NCBI GenBank assembly: GCA_049177215.1
Contig: CP185379.1
Coordinates: 2,921,549-2,985,548 of the forward strand
Reading direction: 5' to 3'
Origin: Candidatus Pollutiaquabacter aromativorans
GTDB lineage: Bacteria; Bacteroidota; Bacteroidia; AKYH767-A; 2013-40CM-41-45
DNA: 64,000 bases
The notes beneath the pieces were generated by a model. The model saw only the letters and a list, made by a program, of their open reading frames with translations, was not told the origin of the DNA and made no database searches. Position numbers and translations under genes: made by a program. How positions within the stretch are numbered: position 1 is the first letter of the stretch; each line of letters starts with the position of its first letter. This document shows, piece after piece, positions 13,715-31,820 of the stretch.

Positions 13715-13804
13715 TAACGTAATTTAAGAATCCTTATTGGTCCTGCGATGAAACGGGTACCGCCTTTTCGATACCTTCGCAGTATATACATTCATCCTAA
13801 GTCC

Positions 13805-15277
13805 ATGAGAAGACTACTCTTATTGATATGCTGTAGCCTATGGTTAAGCACTTTGGCTCAGTCGCCCAAAAAGAAACCCATTCAGGTGGCTCCAGTCATT
13901 TCAAAGCCTTTACCCTCCGCTACTAAGCCCATTCAGCAGGCAAGTTCGGAAAAAGAGAAACCAAGCAACCGGGAAGGGGAGAAAATGACGTCCAGCGACA
14001 TTCTTCCATACCCTATTTACCAGAAGCGAATGGCAAATGGTTTGAACGTCGTAACAGTTCCTTATCCCAGCCCGGGCGTTGCAGCATTCTATATCATTGT
14101 GCGGGTTGGGTCGCGAGACGAGATTGAAATTGGCAAGTCCGGCTTTGCGCATTTTTTCGAACACATGATGTTCCGGGGAACGAAACGATTTCCAAAGGAA
14201 GCATACAGTGCAGCTTTAAAATCTACCGGAGCATCTGCAAATGCTAACACTAGTCTCGACCGCACAGTTTATCACATGACCGCTGATGCATCAAAATTAG
14301 ACCTACTGTTCGATCTGGAAGCAGACCGCTTCATGAATCTTGATTATTCAGAACAAGATTTTCGAACCGAAGCGGGCGCGGTAAAAGGTGAATACACCAA
14401 GAACTCCTCGAACCCGTATACCAAATTGAACGAGTTGATCCAGAATGCGGCTTTCGATCAACACACCTATAAACATACAACGATGGGCTTCTTAAAAGAC
14501 ATCATTGATATGCCTAACCAATTTGCATATTCCCGAAATTTTTTCAGCAGATTTTATCGACCGGAGTATACAACCATCCTCGTGGTTGGTGATGTAAAAC
14601 CGGGGGCGGTGGAAGGATTAGCCAATAAGTACTTTGGACGATGGGAAATGGGGAACTATAAATCTCCGGTACCCCAGGAACCAGCACAATCTGGTGTTCG
14701 TTTTGCGCACATGAAAAAACCAGGCTTCCCACCCTACCTGAGTTTGAACTACCGGGGCCCGGCCTATTCCGACAATTCGAAAGACCTTGCTGCGCTGAAT
14801 ATCCTTGGCGCGGTACTCTTCTCCGAGAACTCAACCCTTTATGAGGATCTGGTTATGAAGGACCAGACGGTACGTTCATTGGATGCTGGAATCTATCCAA
14901 CCCGAGATCCATTTCTATTTAGCGTAGAAGCTTCATTGGTCGCCGATTCCTCCATGATCTTGATTCAAAATCGTTTACTCGAAGCACTTGGACAAGCTAA
15001 GGTCAAGGCACTGGAATCGAAGAAAATTGATCAAGCTCGAGAAAACATCCGGAATTCTTTTGCCATGAGCATTGACAATCCAACTTCGATTGCGGAAGCA
15101 TTGAGTAGCGCCATTTGGTTAACAGGAGATCCCGAATCCCTGAACCGACAGTATCGTCAATACGAGCAAATCACCGCCGATGATATCCAACGCGTAGCCA
15201 ACCAGTATTGCACGGAAGATCGTCTAACGATTGGAACCATATCCAGTGCTGAAAACTCCCCCTTCAAAAAGCCATGA
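13805..15277 (+). CDS. M16 family zinc peptidase (insulinase/pitrilysin-like), catalytic subunit
   Basis: The inverted zinc motif HFFEH is present (GFAHFFEHMMFRGT). A signal peptide is present. Confidence 0.85.
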   Translation: MRRLLLLICCSLWLSTLAQSPKKKPIQVAPVISKPLPSATKPIQQASSEKEKPSNREGEKMTSSDILPYPIYQKRMANGLNVVTVPYPSPGVAAFYIIVRVGSRDEIEIGKSGFAHFFEHMMFRGTKRFPKEAYSAALKSTGASANANTSLDRTVYHMTADASKLDLLFDLEADRFMNLDYSEQDFRTEAGAVKGEYTKNSSNPYTKLNELIQNAAFDQHTYKHTTMGFLKDIIDMPNQFAYSRNFFSRFYRPEYTTILVVGDVKPGAVEGLANKYFGRWEMGNYKSPVPQEPAQSGVRFAHMKKPGFPPYLSLNYRGPAYSDNSKDLAALNILGAVLFSENSTLYEDLVMKDQTVRSLDAGIYPTRDPFLFSVEASLVADSSMILIQNRLLEALGQAKVKALESKKIDQARENIRNSFAMSIDNPTSIAEALSSAIWLTGDPESLNRQYRQYEQITADDIQRVANQYCTEDRLTIGTISSAENSPFKKP

Positions 15278-16833
15278 ATAAACGTATGTTATTCCGATTT
15301 ATCTTCCATGTGGTGCTCATGACGGGCTTCCCCATCCTAGCCTTTGGCCAGGAAGTGATTGAAATACCTGATTTACAATCCAACAAAGTCGTCATACGCC
15401 TGGTATTCCGGAATGGGTCGATTTGCGACCCTCCCGGCAAAGAGGGCATCACTGATGTCACGACTTCCCTAATAGCAGAAGGAGGTACCCAGAAACTTAG
15501 CTCCACTGAAATCACCCGTACCATCTATCCATGGGCGGTTCGCATGTACTCTTCTACTGATAAAGAAACGTCAACATTTAGTTTTGAGGTTCTTACAAAA
15601 CACCTTGATCAATTTTACCCGATCATCCGCGATCTGTTGCTTTCACCAGGATTTCGGGAGGACGACTTCTCAAGAGTGATTTCGAACCAGAGAAATTATG
15701 TTGATGAAGTTATTCGTCAATCATCAGACGAGGAGTATGGTAAGAAGTACCTCGAGTATAAGCTGTTCGGAGGTTGCCCCTACGCCCATCTTACTGCCGG
15801 AACATCTTATAGTTTGGCGGAGCTATCTCTCGAAGACATTAAAACGCATTACAAAAATTACTTTACATCCGGGAAACTTCTGATCGGATTAGCCGGCAAC
15901 TACCCGGCATCGTTGAAAGAACAGATCCTAAACGATTTCAAATCATTCAATGCACATACACCATTTTGTGAAGTCGGTGACGCCCGTACCCCGGAGGGCC
16001 TTCAACTCAGTATCATTTCAAAAGAAGGCGCTATGGGCTCTGCGATTTCTGCAGGGTTCCCACTTAACCTTACACGATCAGACGACGAATTCGCTGCGTT
16101 AATGGTTGCCAATTCCTGGCTAGGCGAACATAGAAAATCCTACTCTCGCCTTTATCAAAAAATCAGAGAAGCTCGATCCATGAACTACGGAGATTACACG
16201 TATATTGAATGGTACGAGAACGGGGGTTCAAATATGCTCCCACCACCCGGAACTCCCCGCTCATTGAATTATTTCAGCATATGGTTACGACCAGTTCAAA
16301 CGGCCGCCAGCCTTCGTAAACAATATGAAGAACTCAAGGATATTCAATTTGGACATGCTCCCTTCGCCCTGAAGATGGCTATCCGAGAGATCGATGCCCT
16401 CATTAAAAATGGAATGAGTCAGGAGGATTTTGAGGAAACACGTGAATTCCTAAAGAGTTACACTAAGTTATATGCTCAAACTCCCGCGCGACGTCTTGGA
16501 TACCTGATGGATTCCAGGTTTTATGGGCGCGAGGATTGGCTAACGACGCTTCAAAAATTACTATCAGGACTAACATTAGAAGACGTCAATTCCGTGATCC
16601 GAAAATTTTTACAGACACAGAATATGTTCGTGGTGATTGTTACTGACCCTGAGGAGGCGAAAGCAATCAACAAAGCACTGGGCTCCGGCAGCGTAACACC
16701 TGTAGCATACTCCGACCAAATGAAGAAGTCCCTCAGCGTAAGTATTCTCAAGGAAGATAATGAAGTTGAAGCCTATCCATTAAAAGTGAACACAATTGAA
16801 ATCGTCAATTCCCTGGACACCTTTAGAAAATAA
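15274..16833 (+). CDS. M16 family peptidase, second (non-catalytic M16B-like) subunit
   Basis: The start overlaps the upstream stop in an ATGA arrangement. The overall M16 architecture is present without HxxEH. Confidence 0.75.
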   Translation: MNKRMLFRFIFHVVLMTGFPILAFGQEVIEIPDLQSNKVVIRLVFRNGSICDPPGKEGITDVTTSLIAEGGTQKLSSTEITRTIYPWAVRMYSSTDKETSTFSFEVLTKHLDQFYPIIRDLLLSPGFREDDFSRVISNQRNYVDEVIRQSSDEEYGKKYLEYKLFGGCPYAHLTAGTSYSLAELSLEDIKTHYKNYFTSGKLLIGLAGNYPASLKEQILNDFKSFNAHTPFCEVGDARTPEGLQLSIISKEGAMGSAISAGFPLNLTRSDDEFAALMVANSWLGEHRKSYSRLYQKIREARSMNYGDYTYIEWYENGGSNMLPPPGTPRSLNYFSIWLRPVQTAASLRKQYEELKDIQFGHAPFALKMAIREIDALIKNGMSQEDFEETREFLKSYTKLYAQTPARRLGYLMDSRFYGREDWLTTLQKLLSGLTLEDVNSVIRKFLQTQNMFVVIVTDPEEAKAINKALGSGSVTPVAYSDQMKKSLSVSILKEDNEVEAYPLKVNTIEIVNSLDTFRK

Positions 16834-20614: not shown

Positions 20615-21274
20615 ATGTTAGATAAGAACGGAATCGCCAAACGCATCGCCCGGGAAGTAAAGGACGGGATGTACGTCAACCTCGGCATCGGGATCCCTAC
20701 CCTGGTTGCCAATTACATTCCCGCCGGCGTGGAAGTAGTGTTGCAATCTGAAAATGGATTGCTCGGTATCGGACCTTTTCCGTTCGAAGGCGAAGAAGAT
20801 CCTGATCTGATCAACGCCGGCAAGCAGACCGTTACGACGCTGAAAGGCTCCTCGTTCTTCGATTCCGCCATGAGCTTCGGCATGATCCGCGCCGGAAAGG
20901 TCGATCTCACCATCCTGGGCGCCATGGAAGTAAGCGAACAGGGCGACATCGCCAACTGGATGATCCCGGGCAAGATGGTCAAGGGCATGGGCGGGGCGAT
21001 GGACCTGGTCGCTTCCGCCAAGCACATCATCGTGGCCATGCAACACGTCAACAAGGCCGGCGAATCGAAGTTGCTGCCGGAATGTTCACTTCCCCTCACC
21101 GGTCGCAGGTGCGTCAAGAAGATCGTCACCGAACTGGCCGTATTGGACGTACTGCCTGAAGGAGGCTTCAAACTACTCGAACGCGCTCCGGGGGTAAGCG
21201 TCGAAGAGATCGTACGCTCGACCGCCGGCAAGTTGATTGTCGAGGGCGAGATCCCGGAAATGAAACTGGATTAA
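20615..21274 (+). CDS. 3-oxoacid CoA-transferase subunit B
   Basis: The protein starts [36 protein letters not shown]. The sequence ENG contains the catalytic Glu. Confidence 0.85.
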
Positions 21275-21312
21275 GTAAGCAAAGTAGACGTACCGTATCG
21301 TGCTTATTCGTT

Positions 21313-21831
21313 TCAGTAAACAAAGCTGATCTCCACGTCATCCACATCCACCGGAAAACGGCTGGTATTATACACGTACAGTTTTACTCGACTATCGCGA
21401 TCCAGTCCCTTTGGAAAATCACAATGCAAGTGATATTGAATCCAACGACCTGTATCAGCAGAAGTCGGTCGGAAGTCTTGAGAACAGTGCACGGTGTTTT
21501 TCCCTTCTTTCTCCACCGTACAAACCAGATTAAAGAAACCTCCAGCCTCCCGAACCCGAACCCAGGCGGAATACTCTGCTACGTTCATTTGTTGTGGCCC
21601 CAGTTCGAAAATCGTCCTTGAAAAGGTGATGCTATAGGGATTCAGGCTGTCGGTCGCTGAATAATGGAAACCCGAATGTCCTTCTCCGATCTGTAAGGTC
21701 GGCACCCAGTACCAGTTACCCAATTCCTCGAAATCGTTGGAGAAAACCATCTCCGTCGCCGGTTTTTTACAGGCCGAAAAAAGGATACCGGATATGAGCA
21801 GGATGAAAAACGCTCGAACCTTGGAAATCAT
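21313..21831 (-). CDS. hypothetical lipoprotein
   Basis: The lipobox LFSAC follows MISKVRAFFILLISGI. The internal start at 21829-21831 is preferred. Confidence 0.5.
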   Translation of the reverse strand: MISKVRAFFILLISGILFSACKKPATEMVFSNDFEELGNWYWVPTLQIGEGHSGFHYSATDSLNPYSITFSRTIFELGPQQMNVAEYSAWVRVREAGGFFNLVCTVEKEGKNTVHCSQDFRPTSADTGRWIQYHLHCDFPKGLDRDSRVKLYVYNTSRFPVDVDDVEISFVY

Positions 21832-22867: not shown

Positions 22868-24757
22868 ATGACCCTACCGAACAATGCCTCCGCCAGGAAT
22901 CGTACCTCGCTCGTAGCGCTCTTCCTGGTGTTGGCCGGCATCCTCGTCGGACATTTCACGCTACCCCGGCTCAAGCATCAGTACTATACACAGGAACTCA
23001 CTTTCGATGTAACCTCGTATTACCTGTACCTGCCGATGACCTTCATCTACGATGATCCCGGCATCCGCAACAAGGCAACCATCGACACTCTCTTTGCCCG
23101 CTATAACCCCAGCCCGACCTTTTACCAGGCCTTCGAACTGGAGAACGGCAACCGGGTGATGAATTACACCTGTGGTTTCGCGTACGCCTACGCGCCCTTC
23201 TTCTTCTTAGCGCACTCCTGGGCCACCGGCAGCAACTATCCGGCTGATGGATTTTCATTCCCTTATCAGTTCCTGGTCGGACTGGGCGTCTATTGCTACA
23301 TACTATTCGGCTGGATCATCCTTCGAAGACTCCTGCTGCGCTATTTCAGCGACACGGTAACAGCCTTCGTGCTCTTGTTCACGTGTTTCGGAACCAACTA
23401 CTTCTCCGAAGCGGTCAACAATTACCTCCAGCCGCACGCGATGCTCTTCACCGGTTATGCGGTACTCCTGTACTGCATATCGAAATGGCACGAACAACCG
23501 AAACGCAAGTACATGGTCGCAGGCGGTCTGGTCATGGGCTGGATGGTGCTGTCAAGACCCAGCGAGATCGTTTGCGTGTTACTACCCTTGCTATGGGGCG
23601 TTTACGACAAAGAGAGTCTGCGGGCCAAGTGGGAATTGGTCCGGAAAAACTTCTCCCATGTGTTGATCCTGGTTGTCTGCGGAATTGTCGTGTTCATCCC
23701 GCAGTTTATCTACTGGCACAAGGTGACGGGCAGTGCGATCTTTTTCAGTTATCAGCGGACAGAAGGATTCGACTTTTTGAAACCGCATATTCTGAACAAC
23801 CTGTTTTCCTTCAAGAAAAGTCTTTTCGTTTATACGCCGATCCTGATCTTCCCGTTGATCGGATTATTCCTGATCCGCCGCTACAACCGCTATATCCAGT
23901 GGGCCGTTGTCGCTTACGCAGCCGTCAATTTTTATTTGCTGGCCAGTTGGGCGGCCTGGTGGAACGGCGGAAGCTTCGGGATGCGCTACTTCGCAGAATC
24001 GTATGCGGTAATGACGCTTCCCTTCGGCTACGTCATCACCGAACTGGGCAAACGTCAACGCTGGCTACGTCTGTTGTCGGGCGCGGCCTTGAGCTTCTTT
24101 GTTTTCCTTAATCTTTTCCAGACCTGGCAGTTCCTGCACTGGATCATCCCGGACGACCGGATGACCTATGCCTACTACAAGCGGATTTTCCTGAAGACCA
24201 AGGTCACAGACGAAGACCGAAAGCTCATGGAAGTGGAACGTTCGTTCGCCGCGACCGAAACCTTCGACAACGAACAGGAGTACGATCATTTCACCCAGGC
24301 GTTCTACGACTTCGACAGCCTGAACTCCGGTGTGCTGGATCCTGCACGGACTGATACCACATTCGCTTACTCCGGCAAACATTCGTGTAAGCTGTCTCCT
24401 GAGTATCCCTACTATCCAACCTACCGGATCCGTTACGACCAATTGGTCCCCTGGAACAAGGACCATGTATGGTTGCGGGTCTCGTGTTGGTATTATTCGA
24501 AAATCGATATCCGGGAAAATCCCGCATCGCTGGTCATCGTGATGCCGCATAAGAAGTATAACCTCAAATACCGGGCATTCGACTTCGAACAGCAACCCTT
24601 CGTACCGGGCCAGTGGAATAAGATAACGGCCGATTACATGACGCCGAGACCGTATTCCGAAGCTGATAAATTCGAGATCTATGCCTGGTACCGCGGCAAT
24701 TCAGAAATCTGGATTGACAACTTTCAGGTTGAAGCTTTCGTAAGAAAAGATCCATGA
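22868..24757 (+). CDS. polytopic membrane protein, a candidate GT-C fold glycosyltransferase (ArnT/PMT-like), with a C-terminal soluble domain
   Basis: At least ten predicted TM helices lie in the N-terminal 420 aa, followed by a 200-aa hydrophilic domain. It is flanked by two DPM1-like GT2 genes, and its stop overlaps the next start (ATGA). Confidence 0.5.
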   Translation: MTLPNNASARNRTSLVALFLVLAGILVGHFTLPRLKHQYYTQELTFDVTSYYLYLPMTFIYDDPGIRNKATIDTLFARYNPSPTFYQAFELENGNRVMNYTCGFAYAYAPFFFLAHSWATGSNYPADGFSFPYQFLVGLGVYCYILFGWIILRRLLLRYFSDTVTAFVLLFTCFGTNYFSEAVNNYLQPHAMLFTGYAVLLYCISKWHEQPKRKYMVAGGLVMGWMVLSRPSEIVCVLLPLLWGVYDKESLRAKWELVRKNFSHVLILVVCGIVVFIPQFIYWHKVTGSAIFFSYQRTEGFDFLKPHILNNLFSFKKSLFVYTPILIFPLIGLFLIRRYNRYIQWAVVAYAAVNFYLLASWAAWWNGGSFGMRYFAESYAVMTLPFGYVITELGKRQRWLRLLSGAALSFFVFLNLFQTWQFLHWIIPDDRMTYAYYKRIFLKTKVTDEDRKLMEVERSFAATETFDNEQEYDHFTQAFYDFDSLNSGVLDPARTDTTFAYSGKHSCKLSPEYPYYPTYRIRYDQLVPWNKDHVWLRVSCWYYSKIDIRENPASLVIVMPHKKYNLKYRAFDFEQQPFVPGQWNKITADYMTPRPYSEADKFEIYAWYRGNSEIWIDNFQVEAFVRKDP

Positions 24758-25486
24758 GCACGATGAGCCCTTATACCCTTTCCATCATCGTTCCCGCGTA
24801 CAACGAGGAGAAAACCATTCGCACCATCCTGGAAGAAGGTGCACGAAGTGACGTTGATTGGCGGCGGGAAAAAAGAGATCGTGGTGGTCAACGATTGTTC
24901 ACGCGACAAGACCCGGGAAACCGTCGAGGCGTACAAATCCGAACACCCGGACCAGCACATCAGCCTGTTCAACCAACCCGTCAACATGGGGAAAGGCGCC
25001 GCGCTACGCAAGGGCATCGAGCTGGCTACCGGTGATTTCATCATCGTGCAAGATGCCGACCTGGAATACGATCCGCACGAATTCAATTTGTTGCTTCGCC
25101 CCTTGATCGAAGACAAGGCCGACGTAGTCTACGGGTCCCGGTTCATGGGCGGACGTCCGCACCGGATCCTCTTCTTCTGGCATTCGCTCGGGAATAAATT
25201 CCTGACGATGTTATCGAATGCCTTCACCAATCTCAACCTCACCGACATGGAAACCTGCTACAAGATGTTCCGTGCACCGGTGATCAAGGGATTGCAGTTA
25301 AAGGAGAACCGCTTCGGTTTTGAACCGGAGGTGACAGCCAAGATGTCGCGGGTAAAAGGCGTGCGGATCTATGAAGTGGGCATCTCTTATTATGGCCGCA
25401 CGTACGCCGAAGGAAAAAAGATCGGCTGGAAGGATGGCTTCCGGGCGATCTGGTGTATTATCAAGTACAACCTGTTTTCGCGTTGA
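24754..25486 (+). pseudogene. GT2 family glycosyltransferase (DPM1-like) interrupted by a +1 frameshift near 24836-24840
   Basis: The N-terminus [20 protein letters not shown] is in one frame. The remainder [27 protein letters not shown] continues in the +1 frame. Confidence 0.7.
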
Positions 25487-25613
25487 GTAGTGGTAGGATA
25501 CTATTTACTAACCGCCGCTATGTAGTTCTTTGCGTTTTCCTAACCGGGAAAGTCTAATTTTTGCCCGGCAACCAGTATCTGGTTATTCAGTTTTTCAAAT
25601 TGATTGGTGTACA

Positions 25614-26453
25614 TCATCGTATCACCACGGTGCTAACGGCTCGAAACCGATCAGATTCAAGTTTCAAAAAGTAAAATCCCGAAGCCAGTGCATCGACAGA
25701 CAATCGAATAGGACCTGTCGATTTCACTTGTTCAGAAATAAGTATCCGGCCGAATCCGTCTAAAAGACGTAACCGGCCGCCAACAGCCGGAAATGGTGCT
25801 TCAATAGTAATGATGTCTCTGGCCGGGTTCGGGAAAACGTGCAGGGTCAGAACTTCCGGAGCATCATTGAGCCCGACGACCTGACCCGCACACATAGAAT
25901 CTCCACTTACCAGGTTGATCGCACCGTCATAGATTGTCAATGCCCCAACGTTGGCACCAACTCTGAGCCATCCGTAATGGGGTTGGTTCTGAATCAACAT
26001 CTTGAATGGATAATATTCAGGATTGATTGATTCCGGTTCACACAAACCGGCGGGACCCATCTGGCCGAACATGATCGCATTGTAAATATTCGTGGAACCA
26101 AAACAGGATCCCGAATCAAGATAAAGCGGACTACAGGCGGAGGGTGAATCCGCAAACGCATTGCCGGTGTCGGTTCCGGTAATGTAAGCGCGATAATTCC
26201 AACAACACTGCTGATGAATAAACTGAAACCACGACCAGGCCGCAGCGGTGAAGTCCGTCACACCATCCTCATTCATGTCCAATGCAAAAGTGTCCCGATT
26301 TCCTTCAGGGTAAGCGGACAATTCGATATCCGGATTGAAGTCAATATAGTGAATCTGCGCATCGGACCTGGAAAAGATCAGCAGCAATAACAATGTAAGT
26401 ATGCATTGTTTCGACTTAATGAACTTGGTAAATTGAAGAAGCAAGCTGAACAT
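25614..26453 (-). CDS. secreted protein with a T9SS C-terminal sorting domain
   Basis: A signal peptide is present. The C-terminus reads ASGFYFLKLESDRFRAVSTVVIR. GC is about 47%. Confidence 0.65.
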   Translation of the reverse strand: MFSLLLQFTKFIKSKQCILTLLLLLIFSRSDAQIHYIDFNPDIELSAYPEGNRDTFALDMNEDGVTDFTAAAWSWFQFIHQQCCWNYRAYITGTDTGNAFADSPSACSPLYLDSGSCFGSTNIYNAIMFGQMGPAGLCEPESINPEYYPFKMLIQNQPHYGWLRVGANVGALTIYDGAINLVSGDSMCAGQVVGLNDAPEVLTLHVFPNPARDIITIEAPFPAVGGRLRLLDGFGRILISEQVKSTGPIRLSVDALASGFYFLKLESDRFRAVSTVVIR

Positions 26454-26569
26454 GATGGAAGATTTCAGATGTTTTTCCTGAAGTAATATTGTCGCACTAT
26501 TAGCAAAGATAATTGTCTAAATGTTGCAATATCCTCTGTTGAAGCTACAGCTCAGGCTAAGGGATAATT

Positions 26570-26941
26570 CTACACATGTTGATCGATCAGAATCACATTC
26601 CCATCCGGATCGCTGATCACGAAGTGCGCCGGCCCGCTCGGTCCGGCCTCTACCCGCTTGACCGGTGAAAAGCCCGCGGCCATCACCTTCTTTTCAATTT
26701 CGCGAACATCGGTAAATCCCGGAATCGTCTGCGCGCTCTCATCCCAACCGGGATTGAAGGTGAGCATGTTTCCATCAAACATACCCTGGAACAAGCCAAC
26801 CAACGCGTTTCCGTTTTTCATGATGTAATACCGATGCTCTTTCGTTCCGGCAAACGCGCTGAAACCAAGCGCTTCATAGAACTTCTTACTGGCTTCGAGA
26901 TCTTTTACGTTCAGGCTGATGGAAAAGGCTCCCAGGTGCAT
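26570..26941 (-). CDS. VOC family protein (glyoxalase/bleomycin-resistance fold)
   Basis: The protein is 123 aa. Sequences such as MHLGAFSISLNVKDLEASKKFYEALGF are typical of the VOC fold. Confidence 0.65.
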   Translation of the reverse strand: MHLGAFSISLNVKDLEASKKFYEALGFSAFAGTKEHRYYIMKNGNALVGLFQGMFDGNMLTFNPGWDESAQTIPGFTDVREIEKKVMAAGFSPVKRVEAGPSGPAHFVISDPDGNVILIDQHV

Positions 26942-27039
26942 GGTGTTTGAGTTTTAGGAGCATTAAGTTAGCGCTTTCCCCTGAATGAACTGAGCAGTTG
27001 GAAAATATCCTATTGAAATCGTGCCAATGGGCTGGCATC

Positions 27040-27324
27040 TCATTTACTTTTAATGTTTATCTCGGTAACCTTGTCGTTTTCAAAAACAATTCTGATCGGA
27101 AAAACATCCCTTCCGCGGATGCTCTGAGGCTTCCCGAATAATAGGGCTTCTCGCCTATAATTTTGCTTTATTGTCACCCCTTCAGATGCCCTGGGGGGGC
27201 CAAGAAGTTTTCTAACATCTTGTTGTGTCATGCCAATTCGAACTTTATCTACACGGTTACTTGGCTCGGAATAGACCCAATAAACGAACAACAAAGCTGC
27301 GATGAAACCTAAGATAAAAATCAT
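27040..27324 (-). CDS. small membrane-anchored hypothetical protein
   Basis: An N-terminal TM helix MIFILGFIAALLFVYWVY is present. The start overlaps the upstream stop (ATGA). The region is low in GC. Confidence 0.45.
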   Translation of the reverse strand: MIFILGFIAALLFVYWVYSEPSNRVDKVRIGMTQQDVRKLLGPPRASEGVTIKQNYRREALLFGKPQSIRGRDVFPIRIVFENDKVTEINIKSK

Positions 27325-27980
27325 CTGCTATTGAAATCATTCAACAATTTTACTGCTGCTTCCCACGTCAACCTCCTTGATTGTCTTTCTAATGGGTAGT
27401 TCGGGTGAGGCAGAAACACAATTGGATAGCTCCCAGATTTACCTCTTAACTTGCCTACTAATACTACCAAATTACCTCTTTTTGAAACTACACTTTCCCT
27501 TTGCACCCCCACCATTACTTTGGCATGATCGATTAACCAATTTCTAAGAACTGTTGAAAAACAGATCATTAATTTTGGTCTAATAAAATCAATGAGTTCA
27601 AGAAAAATTGATGCGCAGGAAACAATATCCTGCTCAGGAATATCCTTCTGTTTCTCTGATCTAAAGAAGCAAAAATTCGTTTGCATCAAATCCCGCTCTC
27701 CAATATTGAAATACTGTTCAATTAAAGGTAAAACTCGTTTCAATGAACCCCAATCATCAGATTTCAAAGGAATCGAAGTTTGTTTTTCGTAAGTATGCCC
27801 TTTCCGTGCGCCCCAATTAAAGCCTACCATCAGCGCTCCGCCACACCGGATTGGGCTTCCCATCAAGGCGTAATTCCACCTTGCAGCCTTCGGATTTTGT
27901 GAAATTTTCGATTGATTCCAAGCCGAGTCCAGTTGTTCGTATAAATTTCTCAGAAACTGATTCTCTGAACTCATCATCAT
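27321..27980 (-). CDS. divergent protein of the uracil-DNA glycosylase superfamily (MUG/SMUG-like GxNxG motif)
   Basis: Spacing and motifs parallel those of the UDG fold. These are ALMVGFNWGARKG (motif A position), TNFCFFR (the ITNVVKCR position), IRPKLMICFS (IRPKVIVALG) and PIVFLPHPNYP (the HPS motif B). GC is about 40%. Confidence 0.4.
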   Translation of the reverse strand: MMMSSENQFLRNLYEQLDSAWNQSKISQNPKAARWNYALMGSPIRCGGALMVGFNWGARKGHTYEKQTSIPLKSDDWGSLKRVLPLIEQYFNIGERDLMQTNFCFFRSEKQKDIPEQDIVSCASIFLELIDFIRPKLMICFSTVLRNWLIDHAKVMVGVQRESVVSKRGNLVVLVGKLRGKSGSYPIVFLPHPNYPLERQSRRLTWEAAVKLLNDFNSR

Positions 27981-28153
27981 TCTTATTCCATTCCTTGATC
28001 GATGATCAAAACTACAAAATATCCAGCTTCATTGATTGAAGCTTCAATTGCTCTTTCATTTTTTAAAAATGGAAATCTTTTCGACAAACTCAGTGTGAAG
28101 AATTCATCCTGCGAAGTTACCGGAGTATTCGAAGATCAGCTAGCTTAGCACAG

Positions 28154-29935
28154 ATGCTTCCCTTGCTCCAGGTAGCCCATCTCATCACCGAATTCCCTTC
28201 GGATGAAGGCACGTTCACAGCTGTGAACGACGTCAGTTTTTCCCTCCAACAGGGGGAGACCGTCGGCATCGTGGGTGAATCCGGATCGGGAAAGTCGGTA
28301 ACCTCGCTCTCGATCATGCGGCTATTGGCTTCGCCGGGACGTATCCGCTCAGGCTCCATCGTTTACCAGGCACCCGGTAAAGAAGCGGTGGATCTTACGC
28401 GTATGGAGGAAGCGGCACTGTGTCGTTATCGGGGCAAGGAGATCGCCATGATTTTTCAGGAGCCCATGACCTCCCTTAACCCGGTTTATTCATGCGGCTT
28501 CCAGGTGGCTGAGGCACTTATCCTGCACGAAAAGCTCAACAAACGGGAGGCACGCGAACGAACGATCGAACTCTTTAAAGAGGTCGCACTACCCCGGCCC
28601 GAACAACTTTATGACGCGTATCCGCACCAGTTATCGGGCGGACAAAAACAACGTGTCATGATCGCGATGGCCATGAGTTGCCGGCCTAAGGTGCTCATTG
28701 CGGACGAACCGACTACCGCGCTCGATGTGACGGTACAGGCGACCATCCTCGACCTCATGCGCCGGCTGCAGGAAGAGCATCGCATGGGCATGCTGTTCAT
28801 CACCCACGACCTGGGTGTCATTGCAGAAATCGCCCAGCGCGTTGTGGTCATGTACAAAGGGCGCGTGGTCGAACAAGGGACCGTACAGGAGATTTTCGCC
28901 AACCCGAAACATCCTTATACGAAAAGCCTGCTGGCCTGCCGACCGCCGCTCGATCGCCGGTTGCGTCGACTTCCGGTCGTGAACGACTTCCTCGAAGAAC
29001 AAGCCGACGGATCATTCACGGACAAGCAAGGTGTGGTCGAACACCTGAATGCGCAGGTGATATCGTCCGAAGAACGCGCCGCCCAGCACCAGGAGCTCTA
29101 CAAAACCGAACCGATCCTTCGGGTCGATCACCTGAATACCTGGTTTCCCATTCGAAAGGGATTATTCGGAAAGACCAACGACTATGTGCGTGCGGTCGAT
29201 GACGTCAGCCTGGTCGTTCATCCCGGCGAAACACTCGGACTGGTCGGCGAATCCGGCTGCGGCAAGACCACCCTCGGCCGTTCCATCCTCCGACTTATCG
29301 AACCTACTTCCGGTTCAGTACATTTCAAGGGGACCGACTTCCTCGCTCTTCAAGGTGAGGAACTCCGCAGGATGCGTCGCCACATCCAGATCATCTTTCA
29401 GGATCCGTATTCGTCACTCAACCCCCGTTTGACCATCGGCGCCGCGATACTGGAACCGATGCAAGTCCACCGGCTTCACGCGAACGATCGTTCCCGTAAA
29501 GAAAAAGTGATGGACCTGTTGCGCAAAGTCGGATTGCGCGAAGAACACTACGATCGCTATCCGCATGAATTCAGTGGCGGGCAACGCCAGCGGGTCTGTA
29601 TCGCGCGGGCACTTTCGCTGGAACCCGAATTCATCATCTGCGACGAGTCCGTTTCTGCACTGGATGTCTCGGTTCAAGCCCAGGTCCTTAACCTGCTGAA
29701 TGACCTGAAACGGGAATTCGGATTCACCTACATTTTCATTTCACATGATCTGAGTGTGGTACGCTTCATGAGCGATCGAATGATCGTAATGAATAAAGGT
29801 AAGATCGAAGAACAAGGCGATCCCGATCAGATTTATCAATCGCCCTCAACCGAATACACCAAACGCCTGATCGCGGCCATACCGGCAGCCGACCCCGAAG
29901 CGGCGGCCCGCAAGCGCTTGTTGGCCACACGTTAA
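28154..29935 (+). CDS. ABC transporter ATP-binding protein with duplicated ATPase domains (Dpp/Opp/YejF-like)
   Basis: There are two Walker A motifs (GESGSGKS and GESGCGKT), two LSGGQ signatures and two Walker B motifs. Confidence 0.85.
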
Positions 29936-29971
29936 CCCTACCCTGCTGTTTTTCTTACCTTCGCCCGGCGT

Positions 29972-30712
29972 ATGTCCAGGTTTCCGAACATGAACTGGGC
30001 CGTGGTGGTTCCCATGGCGAATGAAGAGCCCGACTTCGCGCCGTTTGTCGAAGCGTTGACCGCTCAACTCGATGCACTCGGTTCGGGCAAGGTCTACTTT
30101 GTCGTTGACAACGTTTCCAAAGACCGGACCCTCGAACTTTGCAGAAAACTCAGTGCACAGGATGCCCGCTTTGTCACGATCTGGGCACCGGAGAACCGCT
30201 GCGTAGTCGATGCCTACCTCCGGGGGTACAGGGAAGCATTACGAAACGGTCACGAATTCATCCTCGAAATGGATGCAGGCCTCTCACACGATCCGGCAAC
30301 ACTGCCGGCCTTTCTCGAAAAGCTTGCCGGGGGTTACGAATGCGTATTCGGTAGTCGGTTCATTGAGGGGGGATCGATGGGGGACTCGCCACCAAAACGT
30401 GTACTGCTTTCTCGAACCGGTACAGTGCTTTCCAATCTGTTGCTGGGTACGACCCTGCACGATATGACCTCCGGCTATCAGGGATTTCACCGCAGAATCG
30501 TCGAGCGGTTTTGTGAAAAGCCACTCTTGTCACGCGGGCATTTTTACCAGACCGAATTGCGTTACCTGCTCCGTCGATACAAGGGAGTCGAAGTGCCGAT
30601 TCGTTATAAAGCCCCATCTCCCCGGGTATCCGGCGGCTCGATCCGGAATTCACTCGAGACCCTGCTGCATTTCTGGTGGCGTCGGCTTACCTTTCGGGCA
30701 CAATCACTTTGA
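29972..30712 (+). CDS. GT2 family polyprenyl-phosphate glycosyltransferase (DPM1-like)
   Basis: The motifs AVVVPMANEE, VVDNVSKDRT and EMDAGLSHD are present. Confidence 0.7.
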   Translation: MSRFPNMNWAVVVPMANEEPDFAPFVEALTAQLDALGSGKVYFVVDNVSKDRTLELCRKLSAQDARFVTIWAPENRCVVDAYLRGYREALRNGHEFILEMDAGLSHDPATLPAFLEKLAGGYECVFGSRFIEGGSMGDSPPKRVLLSRTGTVLSNLLLGTTLHDMTSGYQGFHRRIVERFCEKPLLSRGHFYQTELRYLLRRYKGVEVPIRYKAPSPRVSGGSIRNSLETLLHFWWRRLTFRAQSL

Positions 30713-30717
30713 TCTGT

Positions 30718-31704
30718 ATGACCAGTCTGATCATCACCTCTATCTCCGCTCCGAATGCCGTGCTGCGTCGATTTGCGGAAGCCTGTCCCCAACATGGCCT
30801 TGACTTTGTTGTCATTGGAGACGTAAAATCGCCTGCCGATTTCTCGCTACCGGGTTGCCGGTTCGTATCCATCGAGGAGCAAGACACGCTCAACTTCCGG
30901 CTGGCCCGGATTCTTCCCAAGAAACACTACGCGCGCAAAAATCTGGGCTACCTGCTGGCCTGGAAAAGCGACTGCATCATCGAAACGGATGATGATAATT
31001 TTCCGTACGACACGTTCTTCACACCACGTAACCGATCGGTTGATGCATTCACCGTTGGCGGAAAAGGCTGGGTGAATGCGTATGACTATTATTCCGACGA
31101 CAAGCTTTGGCCGCGTGGGTTGCCCCTGGAGGCGATCCACAACCCTACACCTCCGCTTTCCCTGACACGACAAGCCGTCCTTGCTCCGGTCCAGCAGGGA
31201 CTTGCCAATGAAAATCCCGATGTTGACGCGGTGTTTCGTATGACACGGGAACTCCCGGTGAATTTTCGTTCGGCGCCCCCGGTAGCACTGGGCGAAGGCG
31301 CCTGGTGCCCCTTCAACAGCCAGAACACTACCTGGTTTCCGGAAGCTTTCCTGCTGCTCTACCTGCCTTCCTATTGCAGTTTCCGCATGACCGATATCTG
31401 GCGCAGCTTTGTCGCACAACGGCTGCTGTGGACCTGCGGCTGGCCCATGCTTTTTCACGAAGCGACCGTTTGGCAGGAACGGAACGAACACAACCTGCTG
31501 CGCGATTTCTCGGACGAAGTGCCGGGATACCTGCACAATGCAGCGATGGCACATGCGCTGGAGGAACTTGACCTGAAATCCGGGCAAGAACACCTTTCCG
31601 AAAATTTATTCCGTTGCTACCAGACACTCACTGAACGGGGCTGGGTCGGAAAAGAAGAGCTACCGCTGGTAGAAGCCTGGATCCAGGACGCGGAAATCCG
31701 TTGA
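30718..31704 (+). CDS. hypothetical protein with a DDD motif, possibly a glycosyltransferase-associated (DUF288/STELLO-like) enzyme
   Basis: It starts 6 nt after the GT2 stop. The sequence CIIETDDDNFPYD suggests a nucleotide-sugar binding acidic motif. The family assignment is tentative. Confidence 0.35.
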   Translation: MTSLIITSISAPNAVLRRFAEACPQHGLDFVVIGDVKSPADFSLPGCRFVSIEEQDTLNFRLARILPKKHYARKNLGYLLAWKSDCIIETDDDNFPYDTFFTPRNRSVDAFTVGGKGWVNAYDYYSDDKLWPRGLPLEAIHNPTPPLSLTRQAVLAPVQQGLANENPDVDAVFRMTRELPVNFRSAPPVALGEGAWCPFNSQNTTWFPEAFLLLYLPSYCSFRMTDIWRSFVAQRLLWTCGWPMLFHEATVWQERNEHNLLRDFSDEVPGYLHNAAMAHALEELDLKSGQEHLSENLFRCYQTLTERGWVGKEELPLVEAWIQDAEIR

Positions 31705-31705
31705 T

Positions 31706-31820
31706 GGTTTCGAGTTTCCGGTTTCGAGCTTCATGTTAGATGAAGTATATTGAATGTAGGTGGAAATCCTAAACATCGGAAATCCAATTTCAACGCGAAA
31801 CCCGGAACCCGGAACCCACG
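31706..31820. repeat. palindromic heptamer-repeat element (GTTTCGA GTTTCCG GTTTCGA ... CGAAACC CGGAACC CGGAACC) with a central hairpin CTTCATgttagATGAAG
   Basis: Read directly from the sequence. It lies between convergent genes. Confidence 0.85.

Follow-up and report, generated by a model that had tools for sequence, protein, structure and literature searches.

A putative antiphage DNA glycosylase from the uracil-DNA glycosylase superfamily in a mosaic low-GC islet of Candidatus Pollutiaquabacter aromativorans

Within a 64,000-nucleotide stretch of the genome of Candidatus Pollutiaquabacter aromativorans, a wastewater member of the Bacteroidia (contig CP185379.1; this whole stretch is called the window below), positions 25490-28150 form a low-GC islet of four minus-strand genes, one of which encodes a 219-amino-acid (aa) protein resembling glycosylases of the uracil-DNA glycosylase (UDG) superfamily. 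We use the name UDGl for this glycosylase-like protein and its relatives. Our explanation of the locus is that the islet is a mosaic in which UDGl and a coupled 94-aa open reading frame (ORF) form an acquired cassette, and that UDGl is an active antiphage DNA glycosylase of the Brig type; we give this explanation as a whole a probability of about 0.5.

Composition and history of the islet

Composition was judged against the whole window, whose 54.65% GC is lower than the 57% or so that the original prediction, made from the sequence alone, had taken as background. The dip itself was borne out: at 43.7% GC, 25490-28150 is the lowest of all 2,660-bp windows in the 64 kb (z about -2.9). A finer minimum lies in the 950-bp window from 27201 (38.4% GC, z about -3.6), and the strand-symmetric tetranucleotide distance to the window mean (mean 0.338 and standard deviation 0.056 across the 64 kb) peaks at 0.58-0.61 in 1-kb windows starting at 26751-27251. 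By tetranucleotide composition, nothing else in the 64 kb deviates as strongly as the unit of UDGl and the 94-aa ORF (z about +4.9). The drop is uneven, with 39% GC in the UDGl gene and 52% in the vicinal oxygen chelate (VOC) gene of the islet; GC at third codon positions (GC3) is 0.38 for UDGl, 0.41 for the 94-aa ORF, 0.50 for the type IX secretion system (T9SS) cargo gene, 0.64 for the VOC gene, and 0.60-0.73 for the flanking genes. Composition is therefore deviant for 26.95-28.15 kb, weakly so for the T9SS gene, and not at all for the VOC gene. Low GC alone is not unique to the islet, because a second tract in the window (13748-16833, 45-46% GC) contains two adjacent M16 peptidase genes of 509 and 519 aa.

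The four minus-strand genes are as originally described. The T9SS-cargo gene (25614-26453) encodes 279 aa, and its residues 206-278 match the Por_Secre_tail sorting domain (E=4e-8; PF18962, 33.8 bits against a cut-off of 27; TIGR04183, 25.9 against 23), which by sequence makes the product a T9SS type A cargo with a C-terminal sorting domain. It is followed by a 123-aa VOC/glyoxalase-fold gene (26570-26941; Pfam Glyoxalase, E=9e-9), the 94-aa ORF (27040-27324), and the UDGl gene (27321-27980). The ATGA overlap that couples the UDGl stop to the start of the 94-aa ORF can be read straight from the sequence, and both border spacers are AT-rich, as had been claimed (127 bp at 40% GC and 173 bp at 36% GC). 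The second of these is the divergent spacer upstream of UDGl (27981-28153), where the motif TAGTTTTG at 28007-28014 on the minus strand, 26 nt before the UDGl ATG, is an exact match to TAnnTTTG, the Bacteroidota -7 consensus. A second exact match (26504-26511, minus strand) lies approximately 50 nt upstream of the T9SS gene ATG and none was found in the 98-bp spacer upstream of the VOC gene; over the whole window, the motif occurs at chance level and not above it. A sigma-70 promoter scan is uninformative for Bacteroidota.

Many assemblies of the same species are available, 98.6-99.1% identical to the window, and a comparison of 12 of them over 23500-30500 gave 150 polymorphic sites per 7,001 bp, or about 2%. 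The longest run free of single nucleotide polymorphisms (SNPs) is 1,256 bp (26999-28255), and its extent coincides exactly with UDGl, the 94-aa gene, and the spacers of both. The runners-up measure 457 and 448 bp within the T9SS segment and, outside it, 231 bp. Under a simple Poisson model, the expectation for a SNP-free gap of 1,256 bp is about e^-27. UDGl and the 94-aa gene have no variable codons, compared with 69 of 630 in the gene for a 629-aa PMT-like protein, 41 of 594 in the ATP-binding cassette (ABC) ATPase gene, and 14 of 124 in the VOC gene (9 synonymous and 5 nonsynonymous). The UDGl ORF is intact in every assembly, and the 94-aa sequence is identical in all of them. Strains lacking UDGl were sought via the VOC protein, and UDGl was present at all 10 places among the matches listed. 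This gene-specific sweep without a single SNP suggests strong recent selection.

The remainder of the islet has a different history. The VOC region (26580-26999), with about 18 SNPs in roughly 420 bp, is the most polymorphic part of the islet; since it combines this polymorphism with native composition, the VOC gene is a resident. The T9SS segment has only 2 SNPs in 25637-26579 (approximately 940 bp, 11 assemblies), and 25487-26571, comprising the T9SS-cargo gene and its spacers, is missing from one strain (L008, GCA_017996235.1), which has an unrelated spacer of approximately 71 bp instead. From the GC3 values, the SNP distribution, and the absence of this segment from one strain, we conclude that the islet is a mosaic of three pieces, two young low-GC insertions around an older resident VOC gene. 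As a separate observation, the T9SS-cargo gene varies among the assemblies at four codons, every one of them by a nonsynonymous change and none synonymously, unlike the flanking genes.

To see the site in other species, synteny was obtained via homologues of the 629-aa PMT-like protein; with the ABC ATPase as the query of a genome collection, the best matches were 65% identical, and a GT2b glycosyltransferase gene lay near the ABC gene only in L015 and L031. The nearest relatives reached (L096 and L097, 66% identity in the PMT-like protein) have the order GT2> PMT> GT2b> <MOSC <ABC <RNaseH-like <...<beta-lactamase <LplA. Compared with them, the window has the ABC-GT2c-STELLO block inverted (28154-31704), lacks MOSC, and holds the four islet genes between GT2b and ABC. 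L098 (63% identity in the PMT-like protein) has yet another gene order at the site, and more distant Flavobacteriales keep a convergent ABC> <GT2b <PMT order. The islet site is thus a rearrangement hotspot within a cell-envelope glycosylation locus, and the islet genes are absent there in relatives, with the weight of this comparison limited by the distance of the relatives and the rearrangement of the site.

Horizontal acquisition of the UDGl/94-aa unit is well supported because of its foreign composition, the 1,256-bp SNP-free tract, and its absence at the site in the nearest relatives; for the T9SS gene, acquisition is plausible, given that one strain does not have it and that no more than 2 SNPs fall within about 940 bp. 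The original prediction of a small horizontally acquired module accordingly stands for the UDGl/94-aa unit and plausibly for the T9SS gene, but not for a single module of four genes, given the native and polymorphic VOC gene. Other marks of insertion were not seen: repeats at the islet borders are of chance level (12-17 nt only), no tRNA was found in a search of 20-34 kb, an Rfam search at the islet returned no match, and no recombinase (integrase or transposase) was found among the window ORFs.

The differing histories of the genes also bear on the idea that the VOC protein and UDGl jointly protect the cell from a genotoxin of its own, the former as a binder of a bleomycin- or mitomycin-type compound and the latter as an adduct-removing glycosylase. 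The VOC gene, which has the bleomycin-resistance fold, lies on the same strand 98 bp downstream of the unit, and no strong terminator separates the two. Resistance loci can contain drug-binding proteins of the VOC fold and likewise glycosylases that remove adducts. A native, polymorphic VOC gene next to a foreign, invariant UDGl gene is hard to reconcile with such a partnership, however; no two of the 137 neighbours recorded for the rest of the family share the Pfam family Glyoxalase, and the known adduct glycosylases have other folds. We regard this explanation as very improbable.

Fold, pocket, and relatives of UDGl

The AlphaFold2 model of UDGl (pLDDT 78.8, pTM 0.81) was compared with the PDB using Foldseek, and the leading matches (E <= 0.009) all belong to the UDG superfamily, the best being 4ZBY (E=7.7e-5); unrelated folds appear in the lists only at E above 0.009. 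For the model of a fused homologue, P0003 (pLDDT 87.6), all 50 PDB matches listed are UDG-superfamily enzymes, and for both models the matches at E <= 0.001 are to UDG family 4, UdgX, TDG/MUG, or SMUG1. UDG matches were also obtained in BFVD, a library of viral structures. A profile built from 93 family sequences matches Sulfolobus tokodaii UDG 4ZBX (E=1e-4) and aligns N102 of the family to N82 of that enzyme, its base-contacting residue (PMC11078745). Another family member, P0074, comes near the Pfam UDG threshold, at 24.1. Judged by these models and profiles, UDGl has the alpha/beta fold of the UDG superfamily, and the original assignment of the 219-aa protein to a divergent branch of it is upheld.

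Conservation was assessed over the 93 aligned sequences, which are 21-38% identical to the UDGl query. Invariant among them are N55 (within G-F-N-W-G), N102 (within Q-T-N-F-C-F-F-R-S), P135, P191, P193, and W206, and conserved in at least 90% are G53, G57, C104, F106, R107, D118, H192 (within L-P-H-P-N), and R202. An Asn in motif A is found in MUG, SMUG1, and Brig1, and a His in motif B in UDG families 1, 3, and 4. The conserved residues of UDGl are thus, as far as alignment can tell, the pattern of an active UDG-type pocket with a MUG-like motif-A Asn plus a motif-B His, a correspondence that is based on the alignment to Brig1 motif A and on the canonical motifs as commonly described.

This pattern speaks against UDGl being catalytically dead, whether as a binder of DNA or bases, as a regulator, or as a remnant in decay, with the low GC reflecting a selfish or neutral insertion. 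UDGl does fall below the cut-offs of UDG models, it has a Trp in motif A where known families have Pro, and model confidence is low in the loop next to motif A. Yet even among sequences this divergent, none departs from N55 or N102 and at least 90% keep H192, the ORF is intact in every assembly, and fused multi-domain versions of the family keep the same motifs, so we consider a dead enzyme improbable.

Among UDGs, family 4 (TIGR00758; 4ZBX/4ZBY and 1L9G) and family 2 (TDG/MUG) are the best sequence and structure matches of UDGl. It shares with them the central block TN-x-x-x-C/F-R-x, with family 4 the motif-B His, and with family 2 the motif-A Asn. It differs from family 4 in scoring 21 bits against an NCBIfam cut-off of 125 and in having one conserved Cys (C104); because it has only this one and not four, the 4Fe-4S cluster of family 4 cannot form. 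Motif A reads GFNWG in UDGl, compared with GE(A/G)PG or GINPG in these families.

The closest known parallels are antiphage glycosylases with the UDG fold, which the UDGl family resembles on every indirect criterion. Brig1 excises alpha-glucosyl-5-hydroxymethylcytosine and protects against T-even phages (PMC11078745), Brig2 is integron-borne and acts on modified thymidines (Getz et al. 2025, 10.1101/2025.10.29.685425), and Brig3-BapA, encoded by an overlapping two-gene operon, acts on 5-hydroxymethylcytosine (Mejia-Pitta et al. 2026, PMC13160076). These three reports place UDG-fold defence enzymes in AT-rich acquired regions. Like UDGl, Brig1 (Hossain et al. 2024, PMC11078745) stands alone, measures about 220-260 aa, and adopts a UDG-superfamily fold, and the two have the same best solved structural match, the S. 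tokodaii family-4 UDG 4ZBY; both have a G-x-N-x-G motif A (GLNPG in Brig1, GFNWG in UDGl) and relatives in defence islands. They differ in that Brig1 has E147 where the UDGl family has Asn, as family-4 UDG does, and in their hosts, which are Actinobacteria, Proteobacteria, and Firmicutes for Brig1 homologues and mostly low-GC contigs with Bacteroidota-type neighbours for UDGl. When the 93-sequence profile was aligned to Brig1 by hhalign, using a Brig1 sequence taken from a machine-read supplement, the alignment received a probability of 1% and was confined to 27 columns around motif A; membership of UDGl in the Brig1 family was rejected on this basis.

Brig2 and other integron-borne UDG-like proteins are at most 20% identical to Brig1 and occupy integron cassettes and AT-rich acquired regions, as described by Getz et al. 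(10.1101/2025.10.29.685425), and a member of the UDGl family (locus L112) likewise adjoins an integron-type integrase. That report gives mainly Pseudomonadota and Bacillota, with 32 homologues from Bacteroidota, as the hosts of Brig2; our comparison with Brig2 is by description only, and UDGl family accessions are absent among those entries of its tables that were compared. UDGl probably represents a new sequence family of Brig-type antiviral glycosylases.

The family, its neighbourhoods, and the 94-aa partner

An initial search returned only six UDGl homologues, at 32-36% identity. When 1.84 billion cluster representatives were then searched exhaustively with a profile, 273 matched at E <= 1e-3 and 197 at E <= 1e-10, and a profile search of a collection of 5.8 billion sequences gave 65 members, none with a precomputed Pfam domain; one member is labelled "uracil-DNA glycosylase family 4" by JGI. 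Searches of the two coupled proteins against PADLOC, PHROGs, and NCBIfam returned nothing meaningful, and a match of the coupled proteins to RmrA at E=0.011 was treated as noise. The UDGl family, with about 270 clusters, is thus without a Pfam, NCBIfam, or PADLOC model. Most members are stand-alone proteins of about 215 aa, and some are extended at the N-terminus, by 150-250 aa, or at the C-terminus.

Several features of family members were recorded in passing. The subfamily of P0003 and P0008-P0018 has an N-terminal domain of approximately 150 aa with the motif HPFIFDxRLIP; it has no Pfam match, folds confidently in the P0003 model, and occurs as a separate ORF just upstream in two loci (L132 3-416 and L139 5360-5806). 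The C-terminal residues 296-391 of P0033 match the finger domain of DNA polymerase III alpha, and at L112 (1546-4659) a family member lies near a DnaE2-like gene beside the integron-type integrase.

All sampled relatives are in contigs of 30-43% GC, and the family gene is below the GC of its flanks in every host examined except in the uniformly low-GC contigs L092-L094. A search of viral contigs for the family pattern, the 94-aa protein, and the DNA 5' of UDGl found none of them, and tblastn against phage and plasmid records found no family member. A phage-borne or anti-defence origin, the latter entertained in the original prediction next to defence, was dropped for lack of relatives in the viral contigs, phage records, and plasmids searched.

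Genomic context was examined at 41 other loci, 22 of which have usable flanks, and defence or mobile-element genes lie near the family member in at least 9 of these 22. They comprise BREX PglZ/BrxL, WYL, and a soluble AAA-M41 protein at L091; HicA, WYL-WCX, and AAA-M41 at L092; a Gp49/HigB-like toxin at L099; type IIG restriction-modification at L111; the integron-type integrase at L112, where UDGl forms the adjacent cassette and a RelE-like ORF comes next; Shedu SduA, AbiEii, and WYL-WCX at L113; PDC-M33A at L118; the Rosmer antitoxin RmrA at L122; WYL and an AAA ATPase at L129; and type I HsdR with a Schlafen/AlbA-Fic protein at L137. JukA and PDC-M64B are also among the family neighbours, without placement to a locus. 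For comparison, the published figure for Brig1 homologues near defence or mobile elements is about 50%, and Getz et al. give about 41% for Brig2 and mobile elements in 0.03-8% of 20-kb windows around housekeeping glycosylases (Table S8, 10.1101/2025.10.29.685425). Association with defence islands is therefore a property of the family and not of the present locus: the earlier hunch of a defence cassette gains real support from the relatives that adjoin BREX, type I and IIG restriction, Shedu, AbiEii, RmrA, WYL, toxin, and integron-type integrase genes. The locus itself has no defence genes.

The same data speak to whether UDGl does ordinary repair work as a back-up against uracil, hypoxanthine, or oxidised pyrimidines, having been acquired horizontally by chance and serving genome maintenance rather than defence. 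Such a role would suit a UDG-superfamily fold with catalytic-type residues kept, the lack of defence genes near UDGl at its own locus, and the housekeeping contexts of some family members. It fits poorly with a family of only about 273 clusters among 1.84 billion representatives that sits in low-GC patches of different hosts, with defence or mobile-element neighbours in at least 9 of 22 loci, compared with the 0.03-8% reported for mobile elements around housekeeping glycosylases, and with a gene-specific sweep that points to strong recent selection. We consider a repair role unlikely.

All-against-all clustering of the neighbours at the 41 loci found no conserved partner; since there is none, a single-gene system fits. 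At L091 (8627-10711) and L092 (2874-4994), the gene immediately after the UDG-like one encodes a soluble AAA+/Peptidase_M41 (FtsH-like) protein, and WYL regulators lie upstream, an arrangement that could be a multi-gene system.

The 94-aa protein is anchored by a hydrophobic N-terminus and contains a short motif resembling BamE/SmpA-OmlA. Its match to BamE PF04355 (25.2 bits) spans residues 23-47 only, the NCBIfam BamE model gives 15 against a cut-off of 93, and PDB BamE chains match residues 22-48 at E about 0.03. The sequence contains no Cys and thus no lipobox; judged on sequence, it is not a BamE protein, having neither the full-length domain nor the lipoprotein Cys. A BamE-like ORF was found beside family members at none of the 41 other loci, which leaves the coupled pair unsupported as a conserved cassette; the partner is probably lineage-specific and not needed for UDGl activity.

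It is nonetheless conceivable that the two proteins are an obligate two-component unit, either toxin and immunity protein or envelope sensor and effector, in which case the ATGA coupling would reflect their cooperation. They share the ATGA overlap, a common composition, and a common SNP-free tract, unrelated small membrane proteins adjoin the family member at L099 (258 aa), L100 (bPH_2), and L130 (67 aa), and Brig3-BapA offers a precedent for a UDG-superfamily glycosylase whose gene overlaps an accessory ORF downstream of it (PMC13160076). BapA, however, is a deglucosylase of more than 250 aa (residues to at least Q252) with two beta-barrels that acts on DNA (PMC13160076), unlike the 94-aa protein, which by comparison with that description is not BapA-like, with its transmembrane anchor, its BamE-like motif, and its lack of conservation with the UDGl family. 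It is not obvious how a BamE-like domain that faces the periplasm could act with a DNA enzyme, the partner is missing at all 41 other loci, and most family members stand alone; we give an obligate unit little credence.

Flanking genes and the proposed role of the cassette

To the left, outside the islet, lies a split GT2 glycosyltransferase gene (24754-25035 and 24839-25486, plus strand; Pfam Glycos_transf_2 on both pieces). The original prediction had linked this disruption to the left border; the gene is indeed split, but by 1 bp, with no tie to the insertion. It is caused by one extra base at about 24835-24839, within a small polymorphic patch, that is absent from all other same-species assemblies compared, where the gene is called intact at 240-243 aa; this is the only indel in 24-30 kb between the window and the other assemblies. 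The frameshift, approximately 650 bp from the islet border, is thus private to the present assembly and unrelated to the islet, and either a genuine mutation or an error in the consensus could account for it. To the right is a native gene for a double ABC ATPase (28154-29935, plus strand; two Pfam ABC_tran matches). Two further observations concern the surrounding locus. Assembly GCA_016713765.1 (L001 16588-19453) has an ALGX + MBOAT insertion of approximately 2.9 kb without counterpart in the window (at approximately 21272-21392), and the same pair occupies the equivalent place in the related species L096. The insertion adds a further strain-variable piece to the envelope locus. An intergenic patch at 31724-31766 shows dense small indels and substitutions relative to all other same-species assemblies, between flanks that are about 99% identical.

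Several points weigh against an active antiphage glycosylase. The UDGl model is of moderate quality, with residues 56-63 beside motif A below 50 in pLDDT, and TM-scores to solved UDGs are only about 0.45-0.59. UDG sequence models are matched below their cut-offs (PF03167, 19.9 against 24.3 bits; TIGR00758, 21 against 125.3; NF040953, 19.9 against 250). All same-species sequences are metagenome assemblies, that is, consensus sequences. Family members at L100, L101, L116, and L127 are in plain housekeeping contexts, UDGl here is outside any defence island, among genes for glycosyltransferases, an ABC ATPase, a VOC protein, and a T9SS cargo, and the enrichment of the family near defence genes was judged only against published figures for other glycosylases, with no matched control loci.

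For the UDGl cassette, transfer is shown by the data and the mechanism is proposed. The cassette, of about 1.15-1.25 kb, has its own AT-rich promoter region and encodes UDGl and then the coupled 94-aa ORF. Its donor was low in GC and probably also belonged to the Bacteroidota, as its relatives in contigs of 30-43% GC suggest, and its spread within the species was so recent that it carries no polymorphism. UDGl would most likely be an active monofunctional DNA glycosylase into whose UDG-type pocket a base is flipped; from the sequence, this pocket is predicted to consist of motif A G-F-N-W-G (N55), the base-contacting N102, and motif B L-P-H-P-N (H192). By analogy with Brig1-3, it would excise a non-canonical base, such as a modified pyrimidine, from invading DNA, and the resulting abasic sites would block replication of that DNA. 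Base excision, the antiphage role, and the dispensability of the 94-aa protein are what we infer from the pocket residues, the family neighbourhoods, and the absence of the partner elsewhere.

A bolder version of this proposal is that the UDGl family comprises mostly Bacteroidota-borne antiviral glycosylases, separate from Brig1-3, that recognise a DNA modification of environmental Bacteroidota phages, and that with the 94-aa protein the present cassette works in two layers, exclusion at the envelope and attack on DNA. We think this version doubtful at best.

That UDG-fold glycosylases can act against phages is already established (2024-2026); what is new here is an unannotated family and an unusually clean population signature, caught shortly after acquisition. 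The locus is a clean natural example of a gene-specific sweep, with 1.26 kb free of SNPs amid about 2% variable sites, and it illustrates how a "low-GC islet" can be put together from segments that do not share a history. If our explanation is correct, UDGl would add a further family of UDG-fold defence glycosylases, recognisable by the motif set GFNWG, QTN-x-C-F-F-R-S, and LPHPN, would extend the Brig principle to environmental Bacteroidota, and would hint at still-unknown DNA modifications in the phages of Bacteroidota.

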